Position numbers and translations under genes: made by a program | Assembly (NCBI GenBank): GCA_045545315.1 | Contig: JAZQAR010000023.1 | Location: 1-59,692 of the forward strand | DNA length: 59,692 nucleotides | From: Eubacteriales bacterium | Lineage (GTDB): Bacteria; Bacillota; Clostridia; Oscillospirales; QAKW01 | Direction: 5' to 3' | The notes under the pieces: generated by a model | Database searches by the model: none | Seen by the model: the letters and a program-made list of their open reading frames with translations, nothing else | What the model was told of the DNA's origin: nothing | Shown here: positions 39,935 to 49,440 of the stretch, piece by piece | Layout: the number at the start of each line of letters is the position of its first letter | Position numbering within the stretch: the first letter of the stretch is position 1

Positions 39935-40099
39935 TCCTTTGAGGTCGCGATTCCAAAAATTGATAAAAATTTACTATTTTACTATGCTAAAATGCTTATG
40001 AATCCGTTCTTTTGTGAAAAATCGGGCACCGGGCGGAGTGAATATCGGTTTTATCGGGCTGTTTAGACCTCTTTTCAACAAGACCTTTCCCACAATGAA

Positions 40100-40131
40100 G
40101 AAAAAGCCTGCCGCACCGATGTGCGGCAGGC
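40100..40131 (-). terminator. Rho-independent terminator after immunity-like paralog 3
   Basis: GCCTGCCGCAC, loop CGAT, then GTGCGGCAGGC. On the minus strand it is followed by TTTTT. It lies 25 nt after the stop at 40156. The same terminator recurs at 41192..41223 and 42639..42670. Confidence 0.7.
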
Positions 40132-40155
40132 TCTCTATTTTGATCGCATTAGATT

Positions 40156-41061
40156 TCAGTTGAAATCGGTCGAAGACGGGGACCCGTCCCTTGTCTTACG
40201 AAGTTTTTCCATCTGTTCGATCCAAGTGTTTAACTCTCCCTCTATTTCCACACAAGCCTCCACCTCATTCTGCTCATTCAACATAAAGGCATAGGTATTT
40301 CCGAAAGTCACTGCACCATCTTCCGGATTCTCGCGTGCTTCCCTCGCAATATAGACAGGTCGCTGTTCCTCGTCATAAATTGCACCCACATACGCTTTAT
40401 CCCATTCTTGATTCAAATAGTTGTATAAAGCCTTTTGGACAATGTCTTGATCAATCTCCGGCGGATAAATCCTTTCCTCTGGATCATACGTTATTTTGGC
40501 GACCTTTTTTAAATCCAAAGGCTTTCCCCAATCATTTTTCTTCTTCAATTCTTCAATGGATTCCATCTCTGTTTCAGGATCAACAGGAAAAGCCACACTT
40601 TCCGTGCGATAGAAATAAACCTCGTTTTTGCTTTTTTTCTGCACAATCGAATAAACCTTTGACCAAGTCCATGGTTTCGTTTTATACTGATCTGTCAGAG
40701 CGTCGTGGAGATATTCAAAGCCCACAGCATAATAACAATATAACCGTCTTCCATAGGAATCTTCTTCAATCTCTTCCATATATAGATTGATATCATAATC
40801 TATATATGGATTGAAATAGAAACATTCATATGAAAGCATCAATTCATTGGCTTCGAGACCATCGAATTCGTTTTCCCTTTGACCAAATATTGCATGAACT
40901 CCCTCAATTGTTATAACCGCACTGGCGATCAATGCAGTTGCCACACCGAATATGAGCGCTATACTAAAAAAGCAACCCCGCTTTCGTTTCCGCGAAATAG
41001 CGCACAGCATCGTCGAAGGCGGATTGGAAGTGCCGTCCATCTTGTTTTTTCCTCTCTTCAT
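40156..41061 (-). CDS. Membrane-anchored immunity-like protein, paralog 3 (orphan cassette)
   Basis: ORF track 40156..41091. I chose the ATG at complement 41059..41061, which lies 8 nt after GGGAGG (MKRGKNKMDG...). It has one N-terminal TM helix (CFFSIALIFGVATALIASAVITI). It shares blocks with 41357..42244 and 42695..43519: EEDSYGRRLYCYY, VYSIVQKKSKNEVYFY, ELKKKNDWGKPL, TYAFMLNEQNEVE and a RKTRDGSPSSTD tail. Confidence 0.75.
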   Translation of the reverse strand: MKRGKNKMDGTSNPPSTMLCAISRKRKRGCFFSIALIFGVATALIASAVITIEGVHAIFGQRENEFDGLEANELMLSYECFYFNPYIDYDINLYMEEIEEDSYGRRLYCYYAVGFEYLHDALTDQYKTKPWTWSKVYSIVQKKSKNEVYFYRTESVAFPVDPETEMESIEELKKKNDWGKPLDLKKVAKITYDPEERIYPPEIDQDIVQKALYNYLNQEWDKAYVGAIYDEEQRPVYIAREARENPEDGAVTFGNTYAFMLNEQNEVEACVEIEGELNTWIEQMEKLRKTRDGSPSSTDFN

Positions 41062-41101
41062 CCGAAACACCTCCCAACAAATCTGCGACATATTCCCACG
41101 G
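40964..41101 (-). pseudogene. Orphan relic of an RHS toxin C-terminal tip (no start codon)
   Basis: Not in the ORF track. The minus-strand frame reads PWEYVADLLGGVSDEERKKQDGRHFQSAFDDAVRYFAETKAGLLF, then a stop. It aligns with the RHS end QPWEYIADRYGGVLESERQREIDGK...KVAPGYSF. Homology begins abruptly at PWEY, directly next to a GGGGACGGTTC hairpin (41110..41134). It overlaps the start of paralog 3 in another frame, exactly as the live toxin overlaps paralog 1. Confidence 0.65.
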
Positions 41102-49271: not shown

Positions 49272-49292
49272 TGTATATCCTATTCTGTTCTC

Positions 49293-49327
49293 CCATAAAA
49301 TCAGCCCCCGAGGAAAACCTCGGGGGC
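49293..49327 (-). terminator. Rho-independent terminator between the M24 peptidase operon and the RHS gene
   Basis: GCCCCCGAGG, loop TTTT, then CCTCGGGGGC on the minus strand, followed by TGATTTTAT. It ends only about 20 nt upstream of the listed RHS start. Confidence 0.6.
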
Positions 49328-49359
49328 TACTATTTAAGTGAACAAAAAATTACAGAAGA

Positions 49360-49440
49360 CAGGCTCTCTATTTTGATCGCATTAAATTTCAGTTAGGATC
49401 GGTCGAAGACAAGGAACCGTCCCCTGTCTTACGCAAAAAT
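49360..49440 (-). pseudogene. Relic of the 3' end of a fourth immunity-like gene, located upstream of the RHS gene
   Basis: The minus strand reads ...RKFLRKTGDGSLSSTDPN, then a stop (stop codon at complement 49389..49391). It is followed by the conserved AATTTAATGCGATCAAAATAGAGAGCCTG that trails all three intact paralogs. There is no gene body. It contains the hairpin 49406..49430. Confidence 0.6.

Follow-up and report, generated by a model that had tools for sequence, protein, structure and literature searches.

What kind of system is encoded by the AT-rich block of genes that lies between two sets of peptide-utilisation genes in an uncultured gut bacterium of the Eubacteriales (Clostridia), and how were its repeated parts put together? 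The sequence at hand is one contig of 59.7 kb (the window), in which the block, hereafter the island, occupies positions 40098-49432 (about 9.3 kb), is sharply bounded and has all its genes on the minus strand. We consider it likely that the island is a rearrangement hotspot (RHS) toxin-immunity locus for bacterial competition, with a zincin-like toxin tip, a membrane-anchored cognate immunity protein (imm1), two orphan immunity proteins (imm2 and imm3) and an array built from repeats. The system is of an ordinary kind; new are the unnamed toxin and immunity families and the repetitive extragenic palindromic (REP) hairpins at every cassette border.

In minus-strand order the region reads M24 peptidase gene, module relic, terminator-like hairpin, RHS gene, imm1, toxin stub B, imm2, toxin stub C, imm3, opp promoter and oppBCDF-A. 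The G+C content is 0.36-0.48 in every 500-nt segment from about 39750 to 49450, and 0.52-0.62 in the flanks. Windowed G+C content and open reading frame (ORF) coordinates thus confirm the low-GC, minus-strand island that a first-pass annotation had proposed from the letters of the sequence.

An RHS protein with a predicted zincin-like tip

The RHS ORF (43458..49271, minus strand) encodes 1937 aa when read from a GTG codon. Its earlier identification as an RHS/YD-repeat polymorphic toxin is borne out by Pfam and NCBIfam: RHS_repeat (PF05593) matches 19 stretches of the protein (E 3.1e-128), DUF6531 is present (E 6.5e-10), the YD-repeat model TIGR01643 matches with E 2.1e-98, and the RHS-associated core model TIGR03696 matches residues 1655-1718 (E 2e-7) with 31.4 bits, just under its cut-off of 32.5. 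The probable core ends in the motif NVDPLGL (residues 1712-1718), which is of the DPxGL type and at which cleavage is only predicted. The first 54 codons of the ORF resemble promoter DNA. A TTG codon at 49109-49107, located behind GAAAGG, is more likely than the GTG to be the start.

The C-terminal toxin domain, or tip, comprises residues 1787-1937 (43461..43913, minus strand) and was examined by alignment and with an AlphaFold2 (AF2) model. A search with the last 219 residues of the RHS protein gave 87 homologs, and in an alignment of 88 sequences H-E-Y-G-H, P-S and Y are invariant, PWE is conserved in at least 90% and Y-Y-S-Q-P-W-E-x-x-A-D is nearly invariant. The HEYGH codons are located at 43727-43713, and the conserved Glu of PWE is encoded further downstream. 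The AF2 model of the tip, made from the 88 sequences, is a compact domain (predicted local distance difference test, pLDDT, 92.3; predicted template modelling score, pTM, 0.88) in which a small sheet precedes two helices, one of 36 residues (58-93) with HEYGH and a second (102-111) with the Glu. Owing to this motif and topology we label the tip zincin-like, that is, a predicted metallohydrolase with His-Glu-x-x-His on a long helix and a conserved Glu on the next, and a member of no named family. The top Foldseek matches of the tip were also zincins (BlaR1 protease domain, anthrax lethal factor and botulinum neurotoxin light chains), none of them significant.

The domain is common at RHS C-termini in metagenomes and sits there behind unrelated RHS core ends. 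Homologs include full-length RHS proteins of 1.8-2.4 kaa, many with Sec signal peptides and some without, and a profile search found at least 150 clusters at 50% identity that span the whole core-end-plus-toxin profile. The first-pass annotation could name neither the toxin nor the immunity family and counted both as new. Searches of Pfam, NCBIfam and PDB sequences likewise gave no significant match to the tip or to imm1-3, so the families are indeed unnamed; with so many clusters, however, the toxin family is not rare. When the tip was compared by tblastn with plasmid and phage collections, no match was obtained.

Candidate immunity genes and the predicted site of toxin action

The candidate cognate immunity gene imm1 (42695..43519, minus strand, 274 aa) overlaps the end of the RHS gene by 62 nt. 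It is followed on the same strand by two orphan paralogs with a membrane anchor, imm2 (41357..42244, 295 aa, 40% aa identity to imm1) and imm3 (40156..41061/41091, 35% aa identity to imm1). imm3 has 301 aa from an ATG behind a ribosome binding site (RBS), as in the database gene call (P0088), or 311 aa from 41091. Protein identity among the three is 35-40%, and their coding bodies are 57-60% identical in nucleotides. The overlapping candidate immunity gene and the paralogy of the three downstream genes had both been seen at first pass and both stand, the pairing of the family with the toxin being conserved as well.

imm1 begins with a membrane anchor whose hydrophobic segment ends in the lipobox-like LTSC, and its last 13 codons fall in a REP and in the module described below. 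In imm2 and imm3 an N-in membrane anchor comes after 5-10 Lys/Arg. A word-indexed homolog search with the immunity proteins found only six distant relatives, and exact-sequence look-ups of the imm1 and window M24 proteins returned no record. The family is larger than that search showed and is paired with the HEYGH toxin, because gene context revealed further members in the comparison loci, which come from genomes, metagenome-assembled genomes (MAGs) or metagenome stretches and are given L-numbers. An imm homolog lies directly 3' of a HEYGH toxin in L001 and L163, and likewise in L158 (hhalign probability 97%) and L162 (99.4%). A lipoprotein of about 145 aa takes the place of the imm homolog behind the toxin in Paludicola sp. 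MB14-C6 (L157) and in L160.

All partners in L001, L157, L158, L160, L162 and L163 carry a lipobox, the forms seen being MAGC, LSGC, LSSC, LTSC, LTGC and LCGC, and either a lipobox or an N-in membrane anchor is present in each of the downstream partners examined, which cover 7 loci and two protein families. From an immunity protein that faces outward we infer that the toxin acts outside the membrane, which is the main mechanistic point of this study. The predicted place of action of the tip is the target's wall or the outer side of its cytoplasmic membrane, not the cytoplasm, and we regard such extracytoplasmic action as well supported.

In the cultured relative L157 (CP133133.1 88747-105178) the toxin is an orphan of 143 aa with a 149-aa lipoprotein. 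Behind a 2778-aa protein it forms part of a long array that also includes an AHH nuclease-Imm11 pair.

Orphan immunity cassettes with toxin-gene remnants

The short toxin-like segments upstream of imm2 and imm3 had first been taken for displaced orphan tips. Stub B (42186..42353, minus strand, 55 codons) has the sequence MGYLKNEQNYYSQPWEYIADRLGRV...APGHSF, which can be aligned with the final 55 residues of the RHS tip (71% nucleotide identity as repeat D12; 57.6% global identity). Stub C (40970..~41109, minus strand, about 46 codons) reads LPWEYVADLLGGV... / SLPWEYVADLLGGVSDEERKK..., aligns to the last 46 tip residues and begins a few bases past the hairpin REP-R. In both stubs the truncation point comes a few bases behind an inverted REP, and neither contains HEYGH. 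They carry the overlapped start regions of imm2 (stub B) and imm3 (stub C), and the Shine-Dalgarno sequences of these genes, AGAGGAG for imm2 and GGGAGGTG for imm3, lie within them. As the stubs are without the catalytic motif and supply RBS and start, these units are self-contained orphan immunity cassettes and not swappable or re-armable tips; the stubs, 3' remnants of toxin genes, are the leaders of imm2 and imm3 in an orphan-immunity array. Orphan modules of the same toxin family in L157, L158, L160 and L163 keep the whole domain, often with the RHS core end.

Repeated modules and spacers between the cassettes

The 3' module is composed of a hairpin, the stretch CGACCGATT..AATGCGATCAAAATAGAGAG and a terminator, and all its copies in the island are on the minus strand. 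By repeat scan and alignment, one copy with an intrinsic terminator ends imm1 (42637..42737, REP-F 42712-42736), and another, with a REP-F variant at 40173-40197 and a terminator at 40101-40136, forms the right island boundary (40098..40198). The left boundary is an upstream copy without terminator (49360..49432, REP hairpin 49406-49430; repeat D1, alignment A1), which shows 72-78% identity with the other modules across 101 nt and, in its first 72 nt, is about 94% identical to the module of L003. Downstream of this copy, a terminator-like hairpin with a 12-bp stem (9 GC pairs) and a T-run (49302..49329, minus strand) is located between the relic module and the RHS start. The end of imm2 is different: at 41175..41384 (repeats D9 and D1) an imm2-type variant end (41291-41384) is followed by a relic standard module (41190-41290; REP-F 41265-41289, terminator 41197-41224). 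A second imm2-type gene-end relic (42456-42549, 97% identical to 41291-41384) is found together with two extra REP variants (cores 42603-42612 and 42582-42591) at 42456..42622 on the minus strand (repeat D9). Copies of the module are 87-96% identical to each other, compared with the 57-60% of the immunity coding bodies.

The terminator stems are identical across 42644-42671, 41197-41224 and 40105-40132. The loop (CTGATG vs CATCGG) of the imm1 copy, like that of L003, is inverted when compared with the remaining two, which reads as a signature of hairpin flip or template switching. Of the earlier claim that every cassette ends with the same 3' module and an identical terminator, the repeated module and the identical stems thus remain, while the loops differ. 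The ends are moreover not of one kind, since imm2 ends in the variant, and form a two-type mosaic plus relics.

Each orphan cassette is preceded by a junction spacer (D8) of 110 nt on the minus strand, the two copies (42356..42465 and 41100..41209) being 98% identical. In the first, a promoter-like TTTACA-17-TATGAT whose -10 is extended by TG (42447-42419) precedes the inverted REP-R (42366-42390); in the second, the promoter-like site is located at 41191-41163 and REP-R at 41110-41134. Positions 41110-41134 and 41265-41289 form a perfect 25-nt inverted repeat (I8). A 14-mer of the hairpin has 10 copies in the window, all within the island, against 0.54 expected by chance. The hairpin lies within coding 3' ends, where it encodes the immunity protein tails KTGDGSLSSTDSD, KTRDGSPSSTDFN and NTGDGSMC, each followed by the stop codon. 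An Rfam scan of the island gave nothing above noise.

The island hairpins belong to a REP-RAYT system

Of the REP core GGGACGGTTC the window has 11 copies (0.17 expected), which fall at two loci only: eight are in the island and three around a Y1-transposase gene. This gene (25942-26682, plus strand; PF01797, E 2.9e-15) encodes a REP-associated tyrosine transposase (RAYT), which scores 64.5 bits with the REP_Tyr_transpos model NF047646, below the cut-off of 80 and better than with the IS200 model. It lies between hairpins at 25875-25901 and 26684-26710 in a REPtron-like unit (25875..26710, plus strand). These flanking hairpins have the sequence GTGTCAC[G/A]GGGACGGTTCTCTTGACAC and share the core with those of the island; REP hairpin sequences include AAGACAGGGGACGGTTCCTTGTCTT and GTGTCACGGGGACGGTTCTCTTGACAC. 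As single strands the hairpins are stable, with folding energies of -5.6 to -7.1 kcal/mol.

The exact island 25-mer was found in 74 metagenome stretches, in varied contexts and often as inverted doublets 10-30 nt apart; the inverted pairs of the island are 130 and 321 nt apart, an atypical spacing. The stems vary (AAGACAGG, AACACAG, GTGTCAC, GGAGACAAG), with core and complementarity kept. Several RAYTs, 39-56% identical to that of the window, are located beside the metagenome copies, and a RAYT lies between REPs in L104, L101, L092, L126 and L162. Given these diverse contexts and the RAYT association, the idea that the hairpin is specific to the island was dropped. The REP-like hairpin of the first-pass annotation represents a true REP family, members of which flank RAYT genes including one in the window itself, and the island hairpins and the RAYT are a REP-RAYT system as understood in PMC3116915 and PMC6006769. 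A full-text literature search with the core sequence retrieved nothing relevant.

Toxin or immunity cassettes are also bordered by REPs in at least two further loci of related MAGs. L162 contains REPs, a RAYT, an inverted REP, a 5'-truncated HEYGH toxin and an imm homolog with the REP-encoded tail NTGDGSLC before its stop codon, and in L163 each of three orphan toxin-immunity cassettes borders a REP. In L116 an RHS end together with its immunity gene lies directly beside REPs and a RAYT.

Some further features of the REPs were observed. The RAYT region of the window (25875-27830) has the order REP(+), RAYT, REP(+), a 358-aa ORF without family (26682-27758) and an inverted REP core (27812-27821). 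This ORF is bracketed by inverted REPs like the immunity cassettes; when tested as a member of the immunity family it proved unrelated. Upstream of the RAYT in L162 (1135-2031) a 298-aa membrane-anchored protein ends in the REP-encoded tail KTGDGSSSSN, followed by the stop codon. It was also considered as a family member, and only the REP-encoded KTGDGS tail is in common; thus REP-derived C-terminal tails are not restricted to the immunity family. In at least eight metagenome REP contexts (L106, L107, L113, L117, L122, L123, L129 and L130) the same sequence of about 100 nt, TGATGCGGGATCGATGTTCTTTCGTTCTCTGATCTG..., follows the hairpin, which suggests a second repeated element linked to REP.

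The island site in related species

Upstream the island is flanked by the M24 peptidase gene (50648..49575, minus strand) and downstream by the oppBCDF-A operon (minus strand), both found with Pfam, in agreement with the earlier view of peptide-utilisation operons on both sides. A promoter-like site of the opp operon (39906..39934, minus strand; 12/12 consensus in a promoter scan) lies outside the island. A scan with the M24 protein, using one genome per species, yielded 80 loci, the distant relatives being Acutalibacteraceae and Clostridia gut MAGs. The closest loci are L024 (M24 93% identical) and L003 (91%), with oppB and oppC 95-98% identical. About 750 nt separate M24 from oppB, the next gene, in both of them, and 150-190 nt do so in the more distant MAGs.

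Within the L003 gap are four REP copies, a stretch of 41 nt that matches the orphan-cassette spacer exactly, and a single complete module. Although this module belongs to the imm1 type (96% identical, same loop), it is connected to the flank that in the window comes after imm3, and collinear homology with L003 begins exactly at the window module 40098..40198. What is left in the L024 gap is an RHS core-end fragment (..FRYNGRD..), together with a very small gene end and a hairpin-module-terminator of variant form. Throughout 1.28 Mb of M24 neighbourhoods from the 80 species, the REP core was present only in L003 and L024, at this same site. As M24 stands directly next to oppB in the sister species, with only scars or a relic between, the island is polymorphic; insertion and polymorphism had been proposed from the window itself, and conservation of the island in all relatives is not what the comparison gave. 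The differing relics of L003 and L024 argue that the locus was present in the common ancestor of the three species and was eroded differently in each, the breakpoints of this erosion lying at hairpins and modules.

The scar of L003 (5430-5525) also carries a perfectly palindromic REP, AAGACAGGGGACCGTCCCCTGTCTT, adjoined by partial REP copies. Its appearance is that of a forward copy fused to an inverted one.

Proposed mechanism and alternative explanations

In the mechanism that we propose, the RHS shell would enclose the C-terminal domain of about 150 aa, which by analogy with established Rhs and Tc proteins would be released behind the NVDPLGL core motif. imm1, translationally overlapped with the toxin and lipoprotein-like, with an outward-facing domain, would shield the producer by binding the toxin. 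imm2 and imm3 would be diverged orphan immunity cassettes that probably guard against variant toxins of the same family in competitors. Each orphan cassette may be expressed from its own promoter-like site, its leader being a leftover 3' end of a toxin gene that gives RBS and overlapped start. REP hairpins and conserved modules would be the sites where cassettes were joined, duplicated and deleted, most likely by homologous recombination or template switching at the repeats. Because the modules are so much more alike than the gene bodies, and because the stubs are cut after inverted REPs, the most economical reading is that the modules and the REPs, which usually stand just after stop codons, served as substrates for recombination or template switching.

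Several results weigh against this explanation. The RHS protein has no signal peptide or hydrophobic N-terminal segment from either start, no LXG/WXG, PAAR or other trafficking domain in Pfam, and no match in a homolog search with its N-terminal 396 aa. Since no export signal, trafficking domain or N-terminal homolog is recognisable, its export is unexplained and the gene could be a decaying copy. The word peptidase for the tip is suggested by motif and predicted topology: the tip has no Pfam match at E up to 10 and 24 family members have none up to 1, its only NCBIfam match is one of 12.6 bits to a Zn-metallopeptidase model, and no PDB entry matches it significantly by sequence or structure. 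In addition, imm2 and imm3 are without a properly placed lipobox cysteine and have only the membrane anchor.

The locus might accordingly be a decaying weapon that now works as a shield, the RHS protein being undelivered and selection keeping the three immunity genes against the RHS toxins of neighbours. The RHS protein does differ from many others with the same tip in having neither signal peptide nor trafficking domain, a terminator-like hairpin and a truncated module lie directly upstream of its start, the gene was lost at this site in both sister species, and the orphan cassettes have promoter-like sites of their own. We nevertheless find this rather unlikely: some RHS homologs with the same tip are also without signal peptides, and the 5.8-kb ORF is intact with core, DPLGL and catalytic motif, and an unselected long ORF would soon close. 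A tip that is no antibacterial peptidase, with HExxH hydrolysing a non-peptide substrate or the toxin directed at a host or other eukaryotic target and the lipoproteins otherwise employed, would agree with the absence of a significant match to any characterised peptidase by sequence or fold. A tight, overlapping and conserved gene pair with diversifying paralogs is, on the other hand, the signature of toxin and immunity against kin or competitors, and immunity genes beside toxins are typical of antibacterial rather than anti-eukaryotic toxins (PMC3482391), for which reason we give this possibility little credence.

As to how the array arose, the REP hairpins could be functional cassette ends at which the RAYT, a Y1 HUH enzyme, excises and inserts cassettes, as in a 'cargo-carrying REPIN' (REPIN, REP doublet forming a hairpin). 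Inverted REPs flank the orphan cassettes, the same core flanks the window RAYT, L162, L163 and L116 show REPs or a RAYT next to toxin-immunity units, and the core is absent from the 1.28 Mb of M24 neighbourhoods except at the island site. REPs, however, are normally found right behind stop codons, whatever the intergenic region, most of the 74 metagenome contexts have nothing to do with toxins, no case turned up of a cassette copied to an unrelated site with the REP-to-REP ends identical, and the L003 scar, in which an imm1-type module is fused to the imm3 flank, is explained by homologous recombination from module to module. RAYTs are not known to move cargo. We therefore judge such mobility improbable, and just as improbable the wider proposition that in Acutalibacteraceae-like Clostridia REPs and RAYT are functionally coupled to polymorphic-toxin loci, cassettes being gained, copied and lost as hairpin-defined units. 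If that coupling were true, REPINs would carry gene cargo and a domesticated Y1 transposase would help to diversify immunity repertoires. An integron-like array, or one made by another site-specific recombinase with the hairpin module as an attC-like site, is so improbable that we reject it: an imperfect palindrome does end each cassette and direct module repeats do flank the island, but no integrase or other tyrosine or serine recombinase is present among the window ORFs scanned, and the REP family of the hairpin occurs on both sides of Y1 transposase genes.

Relation to known systems

Rhs/YD-repeat loci with orphan modules are represented by E. coli and Salmonella rhs and by B. subtilis WapA (PMC3482391, PMC3150448, PMC3967940). 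Like them, the island has a giant repeat shell, a probable conserved core that ends in DPxGL, a variable AT-rich C-terminal toxin with the immunity gene immediately downstream, further toxin-immunity remnants behind it, and presence or absence that varies among relatives. Unlike in those loci, the orphan units contain neither core homology nor the catalytic part, only 46-55 terminal codons; there is no recognisable signal for Sec, for secretion systems of type VI (T6SS) or for those of type VII (T7SS), and the cassette borders are REP hairpins.

Tandem, non-identical immunity paralogs downstream of one toxin are also known from the EsaG/TsaI strings of firmicute T7SS toxins, for which repeat-based homologous recombination has been proposed as the driver of gain and loss (PMC9484751). 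In the island, by comparison, the carrier is an RHS protein and not an LXG/T7SS substrate, the immunity proteins are membrane-anchored and predicted to face outward, and the homology for recombination resides in the modules between cassettes (87-96%) rather than in the gene bodies (57-60%).

Metallopeptidases of polymorphic toxins include Tox-MPTase1-5, ALF-MPTase and PVC-metallopeptidase/DUF4157, the last with the signature HExxHxxQ-E (PMC3482391), to be compared with HEYGHTIQ...E of the tip. Like these zincin domains, the tip is a small alpha+beta domain at the RHS C-terminus in which the HExxH helix precedes the Glu helix. Unlike them, it is not matched by their Pfam models, nor are 23 of its homologs, and it has no significant PDB neighbour. 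The immunity protein of P. aeruginosa VgrG2b is a periplasmic lipoprotein. VgrG2b itself has a C-terminal metallopeptidase toxin that acts in the periplasm (PMC6899460), and as an HExxH toxin in the envelope that is neutralised by a lipoprotein it would be the closest functional analogue of the system proposed here. It differs in being delivered by a T6SS in a diderm, and no sequence relationship to the tip was detected.

With the REP/REPIN-RAYT 'REPtrons' (PMC3116915, PMC3337134, PMC6006769) the hairpins share short imperfect palindromes with a conserved core, inverted doublets, and a single Y1 transposase gene between hairpins of the same kind, in which stems vary and the core is kept (PMC6006769). 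In contrast to REPtrons, those of the island are concentrated at toxin cassette borders, overlap coding 3' ends and enclose a cargo of 1.1-1.2 kb, and the host is of a Clostridia lineage and not one of the well-studied Proteobacteria.

Other genes of the window

Two observations concern genes outside the island. Next to the M24 gene a single 744-aa ORF (50652-52886, minus strand) fuses an AraC_binding + HTH_18 regulator to an M20 peptidase; the fusion is kept at full length in L024, and most relatives match only about 470-490 aa. At 899-19520 (minus strand) lies a row of three giant ORFs (2920, 1293 and 1736 aa) in which S-layer-homology domains occur together with 5-6 PASTA domains and with one to three endonuclease/exonuclease/phosphatase domains, an unusual surface-protein architecture.

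Significance

With the tip (HEYGH...PWE) and its partners, the catalogue of polymorphic toxins gains an unnamed but widespread RHS toxin domain together with its immunity family. An attack on the envelope from outside would explain how RHS proteins of Gram-positive bacteria can kill without crossing the membrane. RAYT-type REPs at cassette borders, as seen in the island, in L162 and L163 and in the sister-species scar, provide a lead on how immunity arrays are assembled and eroded, and the occurrence of REPs at cassettes may point to a cellular role of REP-RAYT systems.

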